In this document: positions 5,900-25,285 of the stretch, one piece after another
Layout: each line of letters begins with the position of its first letter
Position numbering within the stretch: the stretch's first letter is position 1
Assembly (NCBI GenBank): GCA_046342165.1
Contig: JBKDPX010000013.1
Location: forward strand, 1 to 32,110
Direction of reading: 5' to 3'
Length of the DNA: 32,110 bases
DNA from: Phycisphaerales bacterium
GTDB lineage: Bacteria; Planctomycetota; Phycisphaerae; Phycisphaerales; UBA1924
Program-made: the position numbers and the translations under genes
The notes under the pieces: model-generated
What the model was told of the DNA's origin: nothing
Seen by the model: the letters and a program-made list of their open reading frames with translations, nothing else
Databases searched by the model: none

Positions 5900-5927
5900 C
5901 CCCTCAGGGCTCACCCTGAGGGGTTTT
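5900..5927 (+). terminator. Rho-independent terminator after tRNA-Pro
   Basis: Perfect 10-bp stem CCCCTCAGGG (5900-5909) / CCCTGAGGGG (5914-5923), with loop CTCA, followed by TTTT. Confidence 0.8.
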
Positions 5928-14256: not shown

Positions 14257-15919
14257 CATCAAAACGATCGTCCTGAAGTTCGGCGGCTCAGTCCTTGCGG
14301 ACGAGCAGAGCCTGACACAGGCCGTGCATGAGATCTATCGCTGGAAGCGTGACGGCTGGCGTGTTGTTGCGGTCGTCTCGGCGTTCGCCGGCAAAACGAA
14401 TGCGCTCATCGCGGCGGCCGCGAAATCATTTGATCGCGCGTTGCCTGCGTCTGTCGCGCCCGTCGTCGCCGGCGGCGAACTCGAGAGCGCCGCGTTGCTT
14501 GGCGTTCTGCTCGATCGAGCGGGCATTCCCGCTTCGGTGATCTCACCGATGGCGTTGGGCCTTCTCGCGCGAGGCGATGCGCTCAACGCCGTGCCGTGTG
14601 AACTCAACACGAAACTTCTCGAACGCGCACTCGAAGCGGATGGCGTCGTGGTCGTTCCCGGCTTCATCGGCGTTGATGATTTCGGCAGAACCGTGTTGCT
14701 CGGTCGAGGCGGTTCGGACCTCAGCGCGTTGTTCATCGCTTCGAAGATTCGCGGCGCGCGATGTCGGCTCGTGAAAGATGTTCACTCGTTCTACGACCGT
14801 AATCCGAATCTGCCCGGGCCGCCCGTGAAGCGATACGTGCGTTCATCTTGGAACGATGCGCTCTCGACCGACGGGAAGGTCATCATGCATCAGGCCGTCA
14901 AACTGGCGCAGGATGCGGGACTTCATTTCGAACTCGGTTGCGTGAACTCGGCCGATCCGTCCGTCATCGGCGGTGATCGTTCTGAATTGGTGATCGCGAA
15001 GATGGAGCATCGCCCGCTTCGGGTCGCATTGCTCGGACTCGGAAGCGTCGGTCGCGGCGTCTTCGATCATTTGCGTGCGCAACCCAAGCGATTTGAAGTT
15101 GTATCAGTCGTCGCGCGTGATGTTGAAAGACATGTCGCCGCCGGTGTGCCGCGAGAGTTGTTCGTTGATCCGAAGAATTCTTCGTATGATGTTCTGGTTG
15201 AAGCGGTCGGAGGCATCGAGCCCGCGCTGACATTCGTTCGCGGCGCGCTCGAGGCCGGACGTCATGTGGTGACGGCGAACAAAGCACTCATCGCCGCGCA
15301 TGGTGATGAGTTGCGCGCGTTGTGCAAGCGAACCGGCGCGACGCTTCGCTATTCGGCGAGTGTCGGCGGCGGATTGCCCGTGATCGAAACGGTCAGACGC
15401 ATTGCGTCCCGGGGCGTCGTTTCGATTGAAGCCGTGATGAACGGAACATCGAATTTCGTGTTGGATCTCGTGCGCTCTGGGAAGAGTCTCGCTGATGCGG
15501 TCGCGGAAGCCCAGCGACTCGGTTTCGCCGAAGCCGATCCGTCACGCGATCTTGACGGTCGTGATGCGGGCGACAAAGTGACTGTGATAGCGCAGGAACT
15601 GGGCGTCAAGATCGGCGAGATCCGGCGTGTCGGAATCACTGCCGAGTCCGCTGCTGCCGCATTGGCCGGCGGAACCAGGGTTCCTCGCCAGGTCGCTCGT
15701 CTGAATGTCAAGACGGGTGAAGCGAGCGTTGCGGTCGAAGGTGTGGATCCTTCGCATCCGTTGGCACTGTTGCGCGAAGAGCAGAACGGTGTGATCTTCA
15801 CGCTTGCGGACGGTTCGAAGGTTCACCTGATCGGTCGCGGCGCGGGCCGTTGGCCCACGGCGGAGTCGGTGATGGCGGATGTATTGGAAATCGCCAGAGA
15901 GTCGGAGGTGCGTTCATGA
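14249..15919 (+). CDS. Compact bifunctional aspartokinase / homoserine dehydrogenase (no ACT domains evident)
   Basis: The GTG at 14249 is preceded by GAGGAGG (14236-42) and overlaps the upstream stop (GTGTCTGA). The N-terminal ~245 aa carry kinase motifs VLKFGGS and LGRGGSDLSA. From about nt 15011 the sequence is homoserine dehydrogenase: RVALLGLGSVGRGV, ANKALIA, MNGTSNFVL, GFAEADPSRDLDGRDAGDK. Confidence 0.85.
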   Translation: MSDIKTIVLKFGGSVLADEQSLTQAVHEIYRWKRDGWRVVAVVSAFAGKTNALIAAAAKSFDRALPASVAPVVAGGELESAALLGVLLDRAGIPASVISPMALGLLARGDALNAVPCELNTKLLERALEADGVVVVPGFIGVDDFGRTVLLGRGGSDLSALFIASKIRGARCRLVKDVHSFYDRNPNLPGPPVKRYVRSSWNDALSTDGKVIMHQAVKLAQDAGLHFELGCVNSADPSVIGGDRSELVIAKMEHRPLRVALLGLGSVGRGVFDHLRAQPKRFEVVSVVARDVERHVAAGVPRELFVDPKNSSYDVLVEAVGGIEPALTFVRGALEAGRHVVTANKALIAAHGDELRALCKRTGATLRYSASVGGGLPVIETVRRIASRGVVSIEAVMNGTSNFVLDLVRSGKSLADAVAEAQRLGFAEADPSRDLDGRDAGDKVTVIAQELGVKIGEIRRVGITAESAAAALAGGTRVPRQVARLNVKTGEASVAVEGVDPSHPLALLREEQNGVIFTLADGSKVHLIGRGAGRWPTAESVMADVLEIARESEVRS

Positions 15920-16959
15920 GTCTCGAAGTGTTCACGACAATCGCCATCGTCGGTGCCACGGGCGCCGTGGGGCGTGAAGCGTTGGCGATTCTCGCCGCGC
16001 GCGGCGTACCGAAGGAGCGCATCGTTCCGCTCGCCTCGGAGCGATCAGTCGGTATGTGTTTGCCGTATGGAGATGATGCGGTGATCGTCCGCGCGTTGAC
16101 GCATGAAGCGGTTGAAAGCTGTGATGCCGCGATCTTCGCAGCCAGCGCGGATATCGCAAAGGAATACGGGCCTCGTGCCGCTGCCAAGGGGGTTGTCGTC
16201 GTTGATAACTCCTCAGCGTTCCGCGCGCATCCTGATGTGCCGCTCGTTGTGCCGGAGATCAACGCGCAGGGAATCGAAGGTTCGAATCTGATCGCGAATC
16301 CGAATTGCTCGACGATCATCATGCTGCTTGCGCTGGAACCTTTGAAGCGCGCGTTCGGAGTGCGCGAGATCACGGTGTCGACGTATCAAGCGGTGTCGGG
16401 CGCGGGCATCGAAGCCGTCGGCGAGATGTACAACCAGTCGCGCGAGAAGCTTGATGCGAAGAAACTTATATCTCGCGTCTTTGCGGAGCCGATCGCGTTC
16501 AACGTGTTCCCGCATGAGTCGACGATGGATCCCGACACAGGACTCAACGGCGAGGAGTCCAAGATGATCAGCGAGTCGCGCCGCATCTGGGCCGATCCGT
16601 CGCTGCGGATCTTTCCGACCTGCGTGCGCGTGCCCGTGGAGCGCGCGCACAGTCAGGCGATCATCGTCACGCTCGGCGAGAAAGTAACAAAGTCGCAACT
16701 TGTAAACGCCTACGAAGGCGCGGCGGGTGTATCGCTCGCGGATCTCAAGTCCGGTCCGCCCACGCCCCTCAAGGCCTCAGGGCGCGACAATGTTCTCGTC
16801 GGACGCTTGCGCATGGACCCTTCCGGCGATCCCTATCGCATCGGTCTGTGGGCCTGCGGCGATCAGCTTCGCAAGGGCGCGGCATTGAACGCGATTCAGA
16901 TTCTGGATCGCAAGGGGCTCTCGGGTCACTCGACCAGGTGTCTTCGAAACGCCTCCTGA
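15916..16959 (+). CDS. asd: Aspartate-semialdehyde dehydrogenase
   Basis: The ATG at 15916 overlaps the upstream stop (ATGA). Motifs are IAIVGATGAVGRE (NADP fold), the active-site NPNCSTI, and QAVSGAG. Confidence 0.93.
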   Translation: MSLEVFTTIAIVGATGAVGREALAILAARGVPKERIVPLASERSVGMCLPYGDDAVIVRALTHEAVESCDAAIFAASADIAKEYGPRAAAKGVVVVDNSSAFRAHPDVPLVVPEINAQGIEGSNLIANPNCSTIIMLLALEPLKRAFGVREITVSTYQAVSGAGIEAVGEMYNQSREKLDAKKLISRVFAEPIAFNVFPHESTMDPDTGLNGEESKMISESRRIWADPSLRIFPTCVRVPVERAHSQAIIVTLGEKVTKSQLVNAYEGAAGVSLADLKSGPPTPLKASGRDNVLVGRLRMDPSGDPYRIGLWACGDQLRKGAALNAIQILDRKGLSGHSTRCLRNAS

Positions 16960-16988
16960 AAAATTCGCTCTGTTAGTGTAAAAAACTG

Positions 16989-17023
16989 TTGACGATCGTA
17001 TTTCGTTCGGTAATATCCGAACG
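16989..17023 (+). promoter_or_regulatory. Promoter with overlapping palindromic operator upstream of imuA (candidate SOS/LexA-type operator)
   Basis: TTGACG (16989-94), 16-nt spacer, TAATAT (17011-16). A perfect inverted repeat CGTTCGG (17004-10) / CCGAACG (17017-23) uses the -10 hexamer as its 6-nt spacer. The imuA ATG is at 17026. Confidence 0.55.
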
Positions 17024-17025
17024 GA

Positions 17026-18174
17026 ATGCGATCGTCTTCGTTTCCAGAGGGGTGTGACCGTTTGGCGCGGGCTCGCGAAGTGCTCGAGCGTTGCCGCGAC
17101 GTTGAGGGAGTGGTGGGCGAGGAGCAAGACGGGGGCGCGGGCGAGCGCAAGGCGGGCCGAAGAGGGGTGGTCAGAACAGGATGGGCGCCATGGGGCGCTC
17201 GTGAGCCCGGAGCCAAGTCCGATGACGGGCTTGGTGTCGGGGCTTTGGAGGTCGGGGGGGTGCACGAATGGTTTGAGATGACGGATGAGACCGCCGGCGA
17301 AGCGCGCGGGCATCCATGGCATCCGCCGCTGGCGATCGTGATGCATGTGGTGCGCCAAGCGATGGTTCGGGTGCGTGGCGCGGGCGCGGTGGTATGGATC
17401 GGACGACGATGTTGGCCTCATCCCATCGCGTTGGCGCAAATGCGAGGTGTTGTCGCTCCCCAAGTGGACGATCTGCTTCGCGAGGCGCATCGATCGGCGA
17501 TTCGAAGCGGTGTTCGCGGCGGAATCAGACTCGCAGGACGATCGCGGAGCACGCAAGAAGATCAGGCGCCTCCCTCGGAGGTCGAATCCCAAGGTGTGGT
17601 GTCCGGAGATGTACTGCGTGAGATGCCGTGGGTCGGGCGTGGCGGAGCGTCGGAGCGTTCGAAATCCAAAGCGCATGAGGAGCAGTCGTCGCATCGCGTG
17701 GAATCCGATGAAGCATCGATTGATCTCGCGGCGTCTTCGCTGTTCGTTGATGCGCACACACACGAAGAGCGCGTGCGTGCGGCGGAGTTGGCCCTGCGTT
17801 GCGAGTCCGTCGCCGCAGTTGTCATGGATGGATCGAAACTGCAGATGTCAGAGTCGCGCAGGCTTCAGATCGCGGCGTATGCGGGTGGCGGAATCGGATT
17901 GATCGCAAGGCCGCGATGGGAATTGCGTGAGTTGTCCGTCGCTCGCTCAAGATGGGCGGTGCGCGCGATTTCTTCAGCGTCCGACGAGATGCGGTGGAGT
18001 GTTGAAGTGTTGCGGTGTAAGGGCGGGGGATCGTTGGTTGTCGGAGGGGGGCATCGTGTCACGGTGCGCAGGGATCATGAAACGGGCGTTGTCGGTGTGG
18101 TTGTCGAATCCGGCCGCGGATCTGGAAATCCGGAGGGAGAGCCGCAGGTTGCGAAGTCTTGCTTCGTCGCCTGA
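17026..18174 (+). CDS. imuA: ImuA-like (RecA-fold, SulA/ImuA family) component of the mutagenesis cassette
   Basis: It sits directly upstream of imuB-dnaE2. ImuA-like strings are GVHEW near the N-terminal third, SESRRLQIAAYAGGGIGLIARP, and the C-terminal MRWSVEVLRCKGGG. Third-position G/C bias favours this frame over the antisense ORF 16777-17763. Start and stop are uncertain; the tail overlaps imuB. Confidence 0.65.
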   Translation: MRSSSFPEGCDRLARAREVLERCRDVEGVVGEEQDGGAGERKAGRRGVVRTGWAPWGAREPGAKSDDGLGVGALEVGGVHEWFEMTDETAGEARGHPWHPPLAIVMHVVRQAMVRVRGAGAVVWIGRRCWPHPIALAQMRGVVAPQVDDLLREAHRSAIRSGVRGGIRLAGRSRSTQEDQAPPSEVESQGVVSGDVLREMPWVGRGGASERSKSKAHEEQSSHRVESDEASIDLAASSLFVDAHTHEERVRAAELALRCESVAAVVMDGSKLQMSESRRLQIAAYAGGGIGLIARPRWELRELSVARSRWAVRAISSASDEMRWSVEVLRCKGGGSLVVGGGHRVTVRRDHETGVVGVVVESGRGSGNPEGEPQVAKSCFVA

Positions 18175-19621
18175 GTGTTCGGCCTCATCGCGGATCGTGT
18201 TGATCGTGGCCGATGAACGTGCGCGGCGCATCGTGCGTGCATGCTGTGATCGCGCGCGCAGTCATGGCGTGCGGCCGGGCATGACCTTCAGCCAAGCCGC
18301 GGCGCTTGTGCCGCGCGTCTCGCTCCATGTGGTTCAGCACGATCCTGATCGTGACGCCCGGGCATTGCGTGCGCTTGCGATTTGGGCGCATCGCTATTCG
18401 CCGACGGTGATGCCAGATCCGCCCGACGGTCTGTTGATCGATGTATCGGGTTCGGAGCATCTGTGGGGAGGTGAACAAGCGCTTGCAAACCTTGTTCGCC
18501 GCGATCTGCATGCACTCGGTTTGTCTTCACGCGTTGCGATCGCGCCGACATTCGCCGCGGCATGGGGATGCGCGCGATTCGGATCAGTCGAAGAGATCGT
18601 GATTCGTGATTCGGAATTGCGTCAACATGTTTCGGAACTGCCGATTGAGGCGTTGGGCATCGAGTCAAAAGTCGCGGCGGAACTTCGTGAAGTCGGCATC
18701 GTCAAGGTTGGGCAGGTGATGGGATTGCCGCGTCGACTATTGCCGGCGCGATTCGGTGATGATCTGATGTTGCGCGTGGATCGGATGCTTGGAAGCGGAA
18801 TCGAAGTGTTGGATCCGCTTCGCGCGCGAGAAGCCGTGTCCGTCTCCTGGGTTCTCGACGGGCCGACGACAAGGCTCGAAGATCTGCGCGTGATCGTGAC
18901 CAAGCTCATCGATTCGCTTTGCGCGCGATTGGAGGAATTGTCATGCGGCGCGCGCGAAGTCGAGGTCGTTCTCAAGCGAGCGGATCTCGAAGCCGCGGTC
19001 ATTCGCGCCACCTGTGTCAGACCGATGCGAGTCCCGCGTCATCTTGAGCGTCTGATTCTTCCGAAGCTTGATCGGATTCATCTCGGATTCGGCGTCGAGG
19101 CCGCGACGATTCATGTGAAAGATCCGGGACGCGTGGGGCATCGAGGGATGCGTCTCATCGAGTCCTCGAATCGTAAAAGCGCCGCGGAGCGCGAGCACGA
19201 ACTCGGCGTGTTGATCGACTCGATTTCGAGCGTGATCGGCGCGGGTTCGGTCCTGCGCGCTCAGGTCGTGCCATCGCATATTCCCGATCGCGCGTTTGTC
19301 TTCACGCCCGCGGATCCGGAACTCGCGCCCTCATCGATTGACTGTGCGCGAAGCGATCGTCCGACGTTGCTCTGTGATCACCTCATGCCGATCGAAGTCG
19401 TCGGTTCCACGCCTCGCGGCGCACCATTGAGCGTGCGATGGAAAGGGGATCTGATTCCGCTTCGCAATGTCTCGACCCCCGAACGAATCGATGGCGAGTG
19501 GTGGAAGGGTGATCGATCTCCGTCGGAGTATTACCGAGTGCAGTTGGAAGACGGTCGATGGTGGTGGCTGATGCGCGATGCGGCGGCCGATCGATGGTTC
19601 GTCAAAGGAATGTGGGTGTGA
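18077..19621 (+). CDS. imuB: ImuB, Y-family-polymerase-like protein of the mutagenesis cassette
   Basis: I placed the start at ATG 18077 (MKRALSVWLSNPAADLEIRR), which matches the usual ImuB N-terminus. The Y-family-like region is VLIVADERARRIVRACCDRARSHGVRPGMTFSQAAAL. It stops 3 nt before dnaE2. Confidence 0.8.
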   Translation: MKRALSVWLSNPAADLEIRRESRRLRSLASSPECSASSRIVLIVADERARRIVRACCDRARSHGVRPGMTFSQAAALVPRVSLHVVQHDPDRDARALRALAIWAHRYSPTVMPDPPDGLLIDVSGSEHLWGGEQALANLVRRDLHALGLSSRVAIAPTFAAAWGCARFGSVEEIVIRDSELRQHVSELPIEALGIESKVAAELREVGIVKVGQVMGLPRRLLPARFGDDLMLRVDRMLGSGIEVLDPLRAREAVSVSWVLDGPTTRLEDLRVIVTKLIDSLCARLEELSCGAREVEVVLKRADLEAAVIRATCVRPMRVPRHLERLILPKLDRIHLGFGVEAATIHVKDPGRVGHRGMRLIESSNRKSAAEREHELGVLIDSISSVIGAGSVLRAQVVPSHIPDRAFVFTPADPELAPSSIDCARSDRPTLLCDHLMPIEVVGSTPRGAPLSVRWKGDLIPLRNVSTPERIDGEWWKGDRSPSEYYRVQLEDGRWWWLMRDAAADRWFVKGMWV

Positions 19622-19624
19622 CCG

Positions 19625-22600
19625 ATGCCGCAGGAACCCTCTCCAAAACCGCACCGACATCCCTTCCGCGATACGGGTGATGATCGTGAAGCGCGCCCAA
19701 ACGATGAGACTTCGACGCGTTGTTCCATCGGATTCGCCGAACTCTGCGTGACGACCAACTACACGTTTCTCACCGGCGCGGGACATCCCGAAGAGATGGT
19801 CGAGCAAGCCGCGGCGATCGGACATCGTGCGTGCGCGATCGCGGATCTCAACACGCTCGCCGGCATCGTGCGCGCGCATGTCGCGGCGGAGAAACTCGGG
19901 ATCCCGCTCGCCGTCGGATCAAGAATTCGTCTGTCGTCCGTCGGCTCCGACGGCTCCGCACATCCTGATGTGCTGTTGTTCGCCGCATCCCGCGCCGGGT
20001 ATTCACGACTCTCGCGCTTGATCACGCTGGGCAAACGACGCGCTCCCAAAGGTGAATGTGAGATCACGCTCGACGATCTGCTTGCGCATCACGAGGGACT
20101 CTTGGCCGTTGTTCCGCCGGATCGGGAAGTTTCAATCGGTTTGGCCGAGTGCGTCGGCGCGTTGCGTGATGTGTTTGATGATGACAGGCTCAGTATCGCG
20201 GTGCGGCGGCTCTACACGCAAGATGACGATGCAGTGCTTGCGCGATGGATCAAGTTCGCGTCCTCGTACGGTGTTCCGCTCGTCGCATCAAACGATGTAA
20301 GGTATCCCGTAAGTTCCAAGCGCGAGTTGCATGATGTCTTGGCGTGTATTCGCGCCGGTTGCACGCTTGATGAAGCCGGATGGCGCTTGTGTCCGCACGG
20401 ACAAGCGTATTTGAAAGATGAGTCTCGGATGCGAGCCATGTTTCCCGGGCTTGATCATGCGATCGCGCGAAGCGTCGAAGTCGCGCTGAGAGCCGCGGCG
20501 TTCTCGATGAACGAATTGAAGTATGAATATCCCGCGGAAGTCTGTCCGACGGGAATCACGCCGACCGAATATCTCAAGCGACTGACCTACGAAGGCGCCG
20601 CGAGTCGCTACGGGCGCTCGATCCCTGAGCCCGTGCGCGCGCAGATCGAATACGAACTGAAATTGATCGCCGAACTTCAGTACGAGGCGTATTTCCTGAC
20701 TTGTCAGGACATCGTCGCTTTCGCGCGCGGTCGTGGGATTCTGTGCCAAGGTCGAGGCGGCGCGGCGAACTCCGCGGTGTGCTATTGCCTCGGCATCACC
20801 GAAGTCGATCCGCATCGATTCAATATTCTGTTTGAGCGCTTCATCAGCCGCGCTCGCAACGAACCGCCCGATATCGATATCGACTTCGAACACGAGCGAC
20901 GAGAGGAGGTCATCCAATACATCTACGCCAAGTACGGTCGTGAACGCGCGGCGCTCGCGGCGGCGGTGATCTCGTATCGAGGCAAAAGCGCCGTGCGCGA
21001 GGTTGGCAAGGCGCTTGGATTCTCGCTTGATGCCGTCAATCTGCTCAGCAAGCAACTCGGGCACTGGTCGACTTCGATCGACCCCAAACGCATCGCCGAA
21101 GCGGGATTTCGAACGGACGATCCGAATATCGAGCGCTTGCTCAGGCTCTCGAATGAGATCGCCGGATTTCCGCGCCATCTCTCTCAGCATGTCGGCGGAT
21201 TCGTCATCACCAAGTCCCCGTTGGCGGATCTTGTTCCCATCGAAAACGCGGCGATGGAAGATCGCACGGTGATCGAATGGGACAAGGACGACATCGATGC
21301 GATGGGGATGCTGAAAATCGATGTGCTCGGACTTGGCATGTTGTCGTGCATTCGAAAAGCGATCGATCTCGTGAATGAACGACGAAAACGAAAGTGCGGC
21401 AGTGTCGTCGGTGAGATCGAGGATCCCGCGTTGCGGCCGCAATCCGGTGTGCCGCTGACACATCAGAGAATTGCGCGCAATCCCACGGATCCGCGCGTGT
21501 ACGACATGCTGTGTCGAGCCGACAGCGTGGGCGTGTTCCAAGTCGAATCGCGTGCGCAGATGTCCATGCTGCCGAGATTGAGGCCTCGGTGTTTCTACGA
21601 CCTTGTGATCGAGGTGGCGATCGTTCGGCCCGGGCCCATTCAAGGCGACATGGTGCATCCGTACCTTCGGCGACGCGCGGGTGAGGAAAGCGTGGTGTTT
21701 CCGAACGAGGACGTGAGACGAGTGCTGGGTCGCACGCTCGGTGTGCCGCTCTTTCAGGAGCAGGCGATGGAGTTGGCGATCGTCGCCGCGGGATTCACCC
21801 CGGATGAGTCGGACGCTTTGCGAAGAGCGATGGCGGCGTGGAAGCGCAAGGGGAAAGACATCGAGCGATTCGGTGTGAAGTTGATCGAAGGAATGACGGC
21901 GCGGGGATACGCCCCGGAGTTCGCGCAAAGATGTTTCGAGCAGATCAAGGGGTTCAGCGAGTACGGATTCCCTGAATCCCATGCCGCGAGTTTCGCGATT
22001 TTGGTGTATGTGTCTTCGTGGTTGAAGTGTTTCGAGCCGGCGGCGTTCGCCGCGGCGTTGATCAACAGTCAACCGATGGGGTTTTACGCACCTGCGCAGA
22101 TCGTTCGCGATGCGATGGAGCACGGCGTGGAGATCCGTCCTGTGGATGTGTCGCACAGTCGGTGGGATTGCACGCTTGAAACTCCGATGAAAGGGCATTC
22201 GTGCCTGAGACTTGGAATGCGATTGGTCAAAGGCTTGCGTGAGGATGAAGCCAATCGCATCAGTGATGCGATGCGCAACGCCAAGCGACCGATCACGAGT
22301 GTGGAGCGATTGTGGAAAGAGAGCGGCGTTTCGACGGCGACCTTGCGCACGCTGGCGAAAGCCGATGCGTTTACAAGCATGAATCTCGATCGAAGGCGGG
22401 CGCTGTGGGAGATCAAGCCGCTACGCGAGGAGGAGTTGCCGTTATTCGGTGGCGCAACAGTTGAAGAAGAAGCGGTGCAGTTGCCGCAAGCCAAGCCGGG
22501 ACGGCGCGTGCTCGATGATTACGAGAGCGTCGGGCTTTCCCTCAAAGCTCATCCGGTTTCTTTTTTGCGTCGACAACTCGAAGCGCGCGGCGTCGTTCCG

Positions 22601-22921
22601 TGTGCGGCGTTGAAAAACGAAATCCAAATGCCAAGCGGTCGATATGTCTCCGTCGCAGGGATCGTGTTGGTTCGTCAGAGGCCGGGAACGGCGTCCGGCG
22701 TCGTGTTTTTGACTGTGGAAGATGAAACGGGAATCGCGAATCTGATCCTGTGGAGTTCGACGTTCGAGCGGTTTCGCAGTATCGCGCGTTTGAGCACTTC
22801 GGTGATGGCGTACGGGCGAGTCGAGCGCCGACACGACGTGGTTCACGTGCACGTGGAGCGGCTTGAGTGCATGGACGGCATGATTCCCGGCATCGAATCG
22901 ATATCGCGGGATTTTCATTAG
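19625..22921 (+). CDS. dnaE2: Error-prone DNA polymerase III alpha-subunit paralog DnaE2
   Basis: 1098-aa ORF. PHP-domain start FAELCVTTNYTFLTGAGHPEEM. Polymerase core strings are PDIDIDFEHERREEVIQYIY, GFPRHLSQHVGGFVI and FQVESRAQMSMLPRL. The C-terminal OB-like region is VAGIVLVRQRPGTASGVVFLTVEDETG. Confidence 0.93.
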   Translation: MPQEPSPKPHRHPFRDTGDDREARPNDETSTRCSIGFAELCVTTNYTFLTGAGHPEEMVEQAAAIGHRACAIADLNTLAGIVRAHVAAEKLGIPLAVGSRIRLSSVGSDGSAHPDVLLFAASRAGYSRLSRLITLGKRRAPKGECEITLDDLLAHHEGLLAVVPPDREVSIGLAECVGALRDVFDDDRLSIAVRRLYTQDDDAVLARWIKFASSYGVPLVASNDVRYPVSSKRELHDVLACIRAGCTLDEAGWRLCPHGQAYLKDESRMRAMFPGLDHAIARSVEVALRAAAFSMNELKYEYPAEVCPTGITPTEYLKRLTYEGAASRYGRSIPEPVRAQIEYELKLIAELQYEAYFLTCQDIVAFARGRGILCQGRGGAANSAVCYCLGITEVDPHRFNILFERFISRARNEPPDIDIDFEHERREEVIQYIYAKYGRERAALAAAVISYRGKSAVREVGKALGFSLDAVNLLSKQLGHWSTSIDPKRIAEAGFRTDDPNIERLLRLSNEIAGFPRHLSQHVGGFVITKSPLADLVPIENAAMEDRTVIEWDKDDIDAMGMLKIDVLGLGMLSCIRKAIDLVNERRKRKCGSVVGEIEDPALRPQSGVPLTHQRIARNPTDPRVYDMLCRADSVGVFQVESRAQMSMLPRLRPRCFYDLVIEVAIVRPGPIQGDMVHPYLRRRAGEESVVFPNEDVRRVLGRTLGVPLFQEQAMELAIVAAGFTPDESDALRRAMAAWKRKGKDIERFGVKLIEGMTARGYAPEFAQRCFEQIKGFSEYGFPESHAASFAILVYVSSWLKCFEPAAFAAALINSQPMGFYAPAQIVRDAMEHGVEIRPVDVSHSRWDCTLETPMKGHSCLRLGMRLVKGLREDEANRISDAMRNAKRPITSVERLWKESGVSTATLRTLAKADAFTSMNLDRRRALWEIKPLREEELPLFGGATVEEEAVQLPQAKPGRRVLDDYESVGLSLKAHPVSFLRRQLEARGVVPCAALKNEIQMPSGRYVSVAGIVLVRQRPGTASGVVFLTVEDETGIANLILWSSTFERFRSIARLSTSVMAYGRVERRHDVVHVHVERLECMDGMIPGIESISRDFH

Positions 22922-22975
22922 CGTTCGGCATGGAGAAAGAGGTTCGGTTGGGAAGAGGGGGTCGTATGATCAGGC

Positions 22976-23647
22976 ATGTGCGGTCGGTTTCATCGCGAAC
23001 TATCTTGGCGACAGGTGCACGAGTTTCTCGATTTGAGATTCCCGACGACCCTTGAGGACGGTGCGGATGTTCCTCCGAGTTCGAACGTCGCGCCGACGCA
23101 TTTCACTCCGGTGTGCACTTTGAAGGACGGAGTGGAGCGAGCGATTGGAATGATGCATTGGGGCATCGTCCCGCCGTGGTCCCGTGATGGGCGCATGTTG
23201 ATCAACGCGCGAAGCGAGACCGCGCCGACTGGTCCGGGATTCCGCGAAGCGTGGACGACAAGAAGATGCATCGTGCCGGCGACAGGGTTCTACGAGTGGA
23301 AGCAGGAGGGGACTCGCAAGGTGCCGATGCTGTTCACGGTTCCTGATGAACCGATCTTCGCTTTTGCGGGGTTGTGGGAGCCTGAACGCTCGACGAAACC
23401 CGCGGGTGTGGTCATCCTCACCATGGCACCGAATGAGTTGGTCGCTTCAGTCCATGACCGCATGCCGGTGATGTTGAGGCGAGGGGACATCAAGCAATGG
23501 TTGCAGGATGGGCAGGGAGACTTTCTTCGAGCGCCGATTCCCGCTGAGGAGATGCGCATGTCTCCCGCAGCCGGTGATTTGAACACCGCACCCGCACGAC
23601 GAAAGGCGCCGCCCAAAGAGGATTCGCAGCCGGGATTATTCGGGTGA
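22976..23647 (+). CDS. SOS response-associated peptidase (SRAP / YedK-HMCES family) abasic-site processing protein
   Basis: The N-terminus is MCGRF (catalytic Cys2). Further motifs are HWGIVPPW, NARSETA, RRCIVPATGFYEW and HDRMPVML. Confidence 0.9.
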   Translation: MCGRFHRELSWRQVHEFLDLRFPTTLEDGADVPPSSNVAPTHFTPVCTLKDGVERAIGMMHWGIVPPWSRDGRMLINARSETAPTGPGFREAWTTRRCIVPATGFYEWKQEGTRKVPMLFTVPDEPIFAFAGLWEPERSTKPAGVVILTMAPNELVASVHDRMPVMLRRGDIKQWLQDGQGDFLRAPIPAEEMRMSPAAGDLNTAPARRKAPPKEDSQPGLFG

Positions 23648-25250: not shown

Positions 25251-25285
25251 ATCGGGCTCCCTTCGGGGGCCCGATTTCATTTTTG
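25251..25285 (+). terminator. Rho-independent terminator
   Basis: An 11-bp stem ATCGGGCTCCC (25251-61) / GGGGGCCCGAT (25266-76) with one G-T wobble and loop TTCG, followed by TTCATTTTT. Confidence 0.8.

Follow-up and report, generated by a model that had tools for sequence, protein, structure and literature searches.

A probable double SOS operator at the predicted near-leaderless promoter of a planctomycete imuA-imuB-dnaE2 operon

SOS boxes are known for most major phyla, and none was found described for Planctomycetota. The alphaproteobacterial box, GTTC-N7-GTTC, occurs also in Rhodobacter and Rhizobium; the LexA box of Verrucomicrobia, which belong with Planctomycetota to the PVC (Planctomycetes, Verrucomicrobia and Chlamydiae) superphylum and have the mutagenesis cassette as a core regulon member, is TGTTC-N4-GAACA, and the Gram-positive box is CGAAC-N4-GTTCG. 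Two further arrangements are relevant here: the multi-operator SOS promoters of Escherichia coli (lexA, recN and colicin genes), in which palindromic boxes stand in tandem, and the radiation/desiccation response motif (RDRM) sites that lie on leaderless damage-response genes of Deinococcus and are bound by DdrO, an XRE-type regulator cleaved by IrrE. Here we analyse a stretch of 32,110 nucleotides (hereafter the window; GenBank assembly GCA_046342165.1, contig JBKDPX010000013.1) from a freshwater member of the Phycisphaerae (Planctomycetota), whose sequence is present in lake and other freshwater metagenomes. The promoter of its imuA-imuB-dnaE2 mutagenesis operon, which probably extends into a downstream SRAP gene, carries two mirrored copies of a direct-repeat box (Table 1), and we read the element as a probable double SOS (LexA) operator on a near-leaderless promoter.

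Relatives of the window were gathered by scanning species-representative genomes with an ImuA alignment, which gave 80 loci, whereas the same scan with a single ImuA protein gave none. Almost all of these relatives are metagenome-assembled genomes of Phycisphaerales or other Planctomycetota. Their aligned imuA 5' regions display a recurrent layout (TTGAYN, 16-17 nt, TAYCCT, AACAnn, ATG), and the string TAYCCTAACAnnATGCGAWC is strongly conserved, beyond the TAnnnT expected of a -10 element. The conserved unit of these 80+ orthologous promoters is a direct repeat of period 11, with consensus TACCCTAACAnnnnCCTAACA and core xAAC-N7-xAAC. The motif gaTAcCCTAACAaAATgCgAaCat, obtained de novo by expectation maximisation from 74 non-redundant imuA upstream regions, likewise consists of two CC[TG]AAC units 11 nt apart, and other planctomycete lineages have a clean tandem form such as ATACCTAACAcATACCTATCAT. 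The core TAAC is commoner than GAAC (T at 23/32 and 26/32 generic sites). The corresponding position weight matrix (PWM) is specific, with 75 matches of at least 15 bits in 563 kb versus 1.7 in shuffled sequence, nearly all of them at imuA 5' ends, and more than 70 loci have the box at imuA. One extra match (L017:5338) falls on the 3' end of a gene in convergent orientation and is probably due to chance.

The window promoter contains this box twice. Box A, on the minus strand, extends from the 3' end of the -35 hexamer to the -10 and so fills the spacer; Box B, on the plus strand, covers the 3' end of the -10, the predicted transcription start, the imuA ATG and codons 2-3 (to +10), its right-arm sequence reading GAAC GGAATGC GATC. 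The 11-bp period is kept in both (GATC at 16994 with GTTC at 17005, and GAAC at 17019 with GATC at 17030), and the offset of Box B from the ATG, -14, is the modal position, shared by about 30 orthologous Phycisphaerae imuA promoters. The right arm is thus the orthologue of an element that runs through the whole family. Both boxes overlap core promoter elements, so that a bound repressor would exclude RNA polymerase; the idea of a repressor operator overlapping the promoter of the cassette, put forward by an initial annotation made from the window sequence, thus appears sound, with boxes that span -35/-10 and -10/ATG.

Most imuA promoters carry one box, in either orientation (only the minus-strand form in L003, L035, L045 and L055, only the plus-strand form in some others), and about nine carry both, with an offset of 20 to 32 bp between them. 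The position also varies: some boxes occupy the -35/-10 spacer and others come after the -10. Where it overlaps the coding sequence, codon 2 is CGA, CTA, CAA or CAC (R, L, Q or H) and codon 3 is WCN: the meaning of codon 2 varies while C-N-A is kept, and the constraint is therefore on the DNA and not on the protein. These three features together (both orientations, variable promoter position and the codon 2 pattern) argue that the motif is an operator rather than a promoter element. An interpretation as an extended -10 or as the site of an alternative sigma factor was rejected on the first two.

These observations also bear on the geometry of the site. The initial annotation had described a perfect 20-bp palindrome around the -10, with CGTTCGG (17004-17010) and CCGAACG (17017-17023) as its arms, and had proposed that a single symmetric repressor dimer binds there, as a new SOS-box geometry (GTTC-N10-GAAC). 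All of its elements, including the two hexamers and the ATG (17026-17028), lie where it placed them; the two 7-bp arms match exactly, with the -10 at their centre, and the window has a single CGTTCGG-N6-CCGAACG. Several related promoters also have GTTCGG or GTTAGG in inverted form ahead of CCTAAC or CCGAAC. However, the central TAATAT is not self-complementary, so what was reported is a 7-bp inverted repeat with a 6-nt spacer, while the true arms are 20 nt long, and a 20-bp site leaves unexplained a further 13 bp of complementarity on each side. The palindrome is formed by the inner halves of Box A and Box B, whose spacing is not fixed: the distance from the inverted element to CCTAAC varies with the box offset, the inner halves at the lexA promoter of one relative (L324, see below) start 20 nt apart versus 14 in the window, and most orthologous promoters have just one of the two elements. 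The variable offset and the many single-box promoters argue against a GTTC-N10-GAAC dimer site, the information-rich unit is the period-11 direct repeat (xAAC-N7-xAAC), and we consider a single palindromic operator very improbable.

In Caulobacter the SOS box is GTTCN7GTTC, a direct repeat (PMC9578287 Table 1). Like the alphaproteobacterial type, the planctomycete box repeats a tetranucleotide core head to tail, with 7 nt between the copies and a period of 11 bp, and it is found at the same genes that the alphaproteobacterial box controls, imuA-imuB-dnaE2 and lexA. The site in the window had been said not to fit GTTC-N7-GTTC, but each of its arms is a one-mismatch version of it (GATC-N7-GTTC, and in mirror image GAAC-N7-GATC); its cores are GAAC and GATC, so that GTTC (GAAC) is not present in both repeats. 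Unlike the alphaproteobacterial box, the Planctomycetota form has a TAAC or GAAC core that is preceded by a conserved CC and followed by an A (CCTAACA), and belongs to an unrelated phylum. The window box would thus work like the alphaproteobacterial direct-repeat SOS box without being a member of that family, since both the taxon and the consensus core differ.

The Verrucomicrobia and Gram-positive boxes share the half-site GAACA/GAAC with the planctomycete unit, but are inverted repeats with a 4-nt gap instead of a direct repeat with a 7-nt gap, and the inverted arrangement in the window has an unconserved gap of 10 nt. As in the multi-operator promoters of E. coli, two repressor sites would act on one promoter and keep a dangerous or costly function under tight control; in contrast to those palindromes, the two boxes of the window are asymmetric and mirrored, which creates a long, hairpin-capable repeat. 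With the Deinococcus sites the element shares an operator that overlaps the transcription start of a (here predicted) leaderless damage-response gene, whereas regulator, palindromic motif and phylum are all different. Four imuA loci labelled Bdellovibrionota, Deltaproteobacteria or Proteobacteria (L065, L071, L078 and L080) carry another palindrome, CTAGTATA-GAAA-TATACTAG, about 55-75 nt upstream of imuA, presumably the SOS box of that non-planctomycete group.

The window and the imuA loci contain neither lexA nor recA, and tblastn searches of 87 imuA loci with E. coli LexA and RecA gave no matches, hence no co-located regulator. Most matches of MCCTAACAWAWNCCTAHCNT in a metagenome-wide pattern scan were on unrelated low-GC contigs that carry arrays of tandem 11-mers or telomere-like repeats; the informative ones were the high-GC minority. 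These high-GC matches included two imuA loci, with the box inverted inside the promoter in L205, a DnaE-family polymerase gene behind TTGAAA-17-TACCCTAACATATACCTAAC (L311), and a contig with a full-length lexA gene (L286; TIGR00498, 181.8 bits versus a cutoff of 111), the homologues of whose product bear the NCBI name 'LexA [Phycisphaerae bacterium]'. The Phycisphaerae possess a canonical LexA, with LexA_DNA_bind and Peptidase_S24 domains. The proteins encoded 3' of five other high-GC matches (L221, L245, L258, L266 and L288) had no family matches, and that of L258 is not ImuA-like.

As an independent test, five further Phycisphaerae lexA loci were picked by LexA protein homology only and scored with a matrix trained on imuA sites only, against a null of 600-nt windows (99th percentile 12.3 bits, 99.9th percentile 14.9 bits). 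L324 has a back-to-back pair of sites (20.1 and 15.3 bits), L330/L331 reach 23.0 and 24.5 bits, and L332, L334 and L335 score 12.0, 12.2 and 10.7 bits. Four lexA promoters can be laid out as TTGATG-[TTAGGTCTTTGTTAGGG]-TACACT, TTGAAG-[TTAGGGTTTTGTTAGGG]-TAGACT, TTGACG-[TTTGGATTGAGTTAGGG]-TATACT (plus a downstream box) and TTGCGG-[TTTGGCCGATGTTCGGG]-TACGTT, and in all four an inverted box fills the -35/-10 spacer. The window, TTGACG-[ATCGTATTTCGTTCGG]-TAATAT-[CCGAACGGAATGCGATCG], has Box A in the same register as the lexA boxes of L331, L286, L324 and L335, and the lexA promoter of L324 also has a downstream box in direct orientation, which is the two-box layout of the window. A box that stands before lexA itself and before genes for translesion polymerases has the signature of a LexA site, and it is on this ground that the imuA element is read as a double SOS operator. 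The link to LexA drawn by the initial annotation is therefore probable; the test that it had set, a similar site upstream of lexA, comes out positive in relatives for the direct-repeat box. Taken together, the box looks like the so far undescribed SOS box of Planctomycetota: full-text literature searches found no published SOS box for Planctomycetes or Planctomycetota, in line with the novelty that had been suspected, and gave only the remark that planctomycete LexA fails to recognise the E. coli box (PMC3108266).

The assignment of the box to LexA is drawn from sequence, and a considerable distance separates the boxes from the lexA start codons downstream; a real operator could accordingly be bound by a different regulator, for instance another damage-responsive repressor that also controls lexA. 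Precedents exist in PafBC of mycobacteria and in the non-canonical S24 repressors of Bacteroidetes (PMC8682763, PMC8565304). We regard this as unlikely: no regulator gene recurs beside the cassette in the 87 loci, canonical LexA is present in Phycisphaerae, the geometry equals a known LexA box type, and a box shared by lexA and the translesion-polymerase genes is the hallmark of LexA autoregulation.

Several features of the lexA loci were observed in passing. A conserved open reading frame (ORF) of about 125-150 aa lies between the box promoter and lexA (L324:2120-2500, L332:2110-2500, L334:2120-2500 and L335:880-1317), with an N-terminal LCxxGPGG[DE][FY] motif and, in L332 and L334, the C-terminus PPVIFGSLxAxLAEEY; it runs over the lexA ATG in another frame, is uncalled in the records, has no family match and is presumably co-transcribed with lexA. 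In one Phycisphaerae lineage (L330:2501-5594), two small ORFs, a gene of the DinB_2 family and one for a Y-family polymerase (IMS/DinB) come after lexA in the same direction and point to a lexA-dinB SOS operon. In L286, the region of the lexA promoter stands between long inverted repeats (693-765 and 980-1013) that are nearly perfect (GGAAAAGGTGCCAGGAACCTTTTG...CAAAAGGTTCCTGGCACCTTTTCC, plus a related copy) and may be a repeated extragenic element.

Box A and Box B of the window are not only two matches to one matrix. They agree with each other at 19/24 positions, including positions that the matrix leaves unconstrained, whereas the boxes of other two-box promoters agree at 12-14/24. The result is a 46-bp inverted repeat, whose 5' arm (16991-17010) includes the 3' part of the -35 hexamer and whose 3' arm (17017-17036) includes the imuA ATG. 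The arms form 18/20 Watson-Crick pairs, and both exceptions are U.G wobbles on the plus strand, so that RNA reading through this strand could form an uninterrupted 20-bp stem with TAATAT as its loop. The predicted folding energy of RNA 16960-17060 is -42.8 kcal/mol (z = -6.1; 0/200 shuffles equally stable). In the segment -42..+14 the window (z = -8.2) and L001, a metagenome relative with 79% ImuA identity (z = -9.9), are outliers with respect to 33 other imuA promoters (-3.6 to +1.2), and the near-perfect hairpin is limited to the lineage of the window. L001 retains it: the sole change in the arms is an A->G opposite U, giving a G.U pair, and the loop changes from TAATAT to TATGAT with TAnnnT kept. 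Between the two sequences there are 3 changes in the 64-nt promoter block and 9 in the adjoining 22-nt intergenic stretch, and imuA codons 1-6 are identical.

Such a structure could be primarily an RNA element, either an intrinsic terminator of the upstream asd gene or a hairpin that sequesters the imuA AUG, its likeness to an operator being secondary. The stem with its stability speaks for this, as do the outlier status among imuA promoters and the fact that each of the three imperfections, counted over the window and L001, permits a G.U pair on the plus strand. The hairpin is moreover the sole one between the asd stop and imuA, where no other terminator-like element was found; it lies 32 nt past the asd stop (20-bp stem, 50% GC) and its T-rich tail TTCGTTTCC yields a terminator-like match. 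Lake-water metatranscriptome contigs cover asd (15858-16918), none cross 16919-18068, and another contig, with 5 mismatches, runs over the imuB start from 18069 on, a pattern that fits a silent mutasome operon in situ, although the depth is too low to conclude and low-depth contigs cannot show absence.

Yet the arms coincide exactly with two boxes that are defined by the matrix and are hairpin-free in dozens of lineages, in which the upstream gene is often divergent (for example L002 and L003). The three wobble-compatible changes have a chance probability of about 1 in 8. The classical terminators of the window (5900-5923 and 25251-25275) are short and GC-rich with strong T-tracts, unlike the imuA hairpin, whose tail is weak and also coding. 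Rfam offers no family for it, the only match being a disregarded sub-threshold one to mir-H11 (29 bits versus a gathering score of 70). A primarily RNA-level element is thus improbable, and the double LexA operator remains the preferred reading of the two boxes.

The promoter itself has a 16-nt spacer and hexamers that match the consensus at 9/12 positions (5/6 and 4/6). The hexamers and spacing given in the initial annotation thus hold, although the match is respectable rather than near-consensus; in a 2-kb region there is 1 promoter match of that quality versus 0.5 expected. Since an in-frame TAA stands at 17011-17013 and no other start codon occurs before codon 13, the ATG at 17026 is very probably the true imuA start. 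Comparison with L001 supports this start as well: of the changes in the first 60 imuA codons, 14 are synonymous, all within codons 11-60, and 7 are non-synonymous, and every change among codons 11-28 is synonymous. An N-terminal DRLxRARxxLE motif is common to the window ImuA and to a distant ImuA protein, whose ATG also directly follows the promoter. No Shine-Dalgarno sequence is present in CCGAACGGA ahead of the ATG, and 45 related loci show a leaderless geometry, with 6-7 nt between the end of the -10 (TAnnnT) and the start codon. The imuA mRNA is therefore predicted to be leaderless or near-leaderless, probably as the initial annotation had it.

Five points weigh against a double LexA operator on such a promoter. 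First, neither lexA nor recA of the window's own genome falls within the 32 kb, so that relatives had to serve for the regulon test. Second, of the five non-ascertained lexA loci, three, which represent two of four lineages, score no higher than 10.7-12.2 bits, with an empirical p of about 0.01-0.02 each. Third, the boxes near lexA are found 100-490 nt ahead of its annotated start, separated from it by a long leader or a small ORF, so that autoregulation of lexA assumes co-transcription. Fourth, the -10 of the window ends 9 nt before the ATG versus 6 nt in relatives, which makes its transcription start less certain. Fifth, the 19/24 agreement of the two boxes exceeds what the matrix needs, and operator function alone leaves their mirror symmetry unexplained. 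With these points taken into account, we still hold the double SOS operator to be the probable function of the element.

Under this preferred reading, LexA bound to both boxes would block RNA polymerase, and upon DNA damage RecA-stimulated self-cleavage of LexA would free the promoter; transcription from about 17023-17025 would then give an mRNA with a leader of 1-3 nt, translated in the leaderless mode. Because the two boxes are almost exact mirror images, read-through RNA from asd would fold into the 20-bp hairpin, burying the AUG and maybe terminating transcription, while an mRNA begun at about 17023, which does not include the 5' arm, would stay open. Through this lineage-specific layer, the mutasome would continue to be expressed only from its own promoter, which is under damage control. 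The role of the hairpin as a read-through insulator or terminator is attractive but weakly supported, and only tentatively, as a possibility that we rather doubt, do we propose a bifunctional element that is, as DNA, a double LexA operator of direct-repeat type, convergent with the alphaproteobacterial box, and, as read-through RNA from asd, a hairpin that terminates or translationally silences, so that mutasome mRNA would arise only from the promoter inside the loop.

Table 1. Positions of the promoter elements, boxes and genes in the window.
Feature	Position	Strand	Basis or remark
asd (aspartate-semialdehyde dehydrogenase)	15850..16959	+	Pfam and NCBIfam matches
-35 hexamer TTGACG	16989..16994	+	TTGAYN at same position in most Phycisphaerae imuA and lexA promoters
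Inverted repeat, 46 bp (20-nt arms, 6-nt loop)	16991..17036	.	Corresponds to Box A plus Box B
Box A (spacer box)	16992..17015	-	PWM 19.7 bits; plus strand GATC-N7-GTTC at 16994-17008
-10 hexamer TAATAT, also hairpin loop	17011..17016	+	TATGAT in L001
Box B (start box), CCGAAC-N5-GCGATC	17012..17035	+	PWM 23.8 bits; GAAC-N7-GATC at 17019-17033
Predicted transcription start	17023..17025	+	Inferred, 7-9 nt 3' of the -10; leader 1-3 nt
imuA coding sequence	17026..18174	+	NCBIfam ImuA (partial match), homologs, alignment, codon analysis
T-rich tail TTCGTTTCC 3' of hairpin (imuA codons 4-7)	17037..17045	+	Terminator-like match; possible but weak tail
imuB (Y-family, IMS domain)	18206..19621	+	Pfam; start set from gene calls on a 98%-identical contig
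dnaE2 (error-prone DNA polymerase III alpha paralogue)	19625..22921	+	Pfam
SRAP (YedK-like) gene	22976..23647	+	Pfam; 54 nt 3' of dnaE2

The stop codon of asd is separated by 30 nt from the -35 hexamer of the imuA promoter. At the other end of the cassette, the SRAP gene has no box of its own, as the PWM stays below 9 bits in its upstream region; this includes the two GTTCGG copies at 22923 and 22942, which are present as the initial annotation reported but were rejected as a box at that score. The SRAP gene is probably co-transcribed with imuA-imuB-dnaE2. In 18/87 loci a gene for such a YedK-like, abasic-site-crosslinking peptidase adjoins the cassette (for example L060:2016-2777), just upstream or just downstream and never with its own box, and neighbour clustering over the 87 loci found it to be the sole recurrent neighbour. 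The ImuA of the window (382 aa) contains an insertion of about 100 aa (residues ~140-235, 17440-17730), rich in charged and serine residues, which is absent from the 250-300-aa ImuA of other Planctomycetota and recurs only in P0001 and P0002, both close relatives.

Sequences resembling the box were also seen outside cellular imuA loci. Three IMG/VR viral contigs (L139:5300-5407, L126:1969-2032 and L160:5452-5515) contain 8-12 perfect tandem copies of ATACCTAACAT, the same 11-mer that forms the imuA operator unit of the Phycisphaera-mikurensis-like loci L079 and L084; these contigs are low-GC and mutually related, the arrays are probably iterons, and the resemblance to an SOS box may be coincidence. 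Many low-GC metagenome contigs, often from rumen (L217, L219, L259, L262, L270, L303 and many others), carry arrays of GACCTAACATAA-like 11-mers, which are often paired and inverted about 100 bp apart and resemble origin, iteron or terminal-repeat structures.

If confirmed, the box would add to the Alphaproteobacteria a second group, probably an independent one, whose LexA reads a head-to-tail site, and would bear on how LexA dimers adapt to asymmetric operators. The matrix would then allow the SOS regulon to be reconstructed across a mostly uncultured phylum. A DNA-binding site would moreover shape the first codons of ImuA and, in the lineage of the window, one sequence may serve both as an operator and as an RNA insulator.

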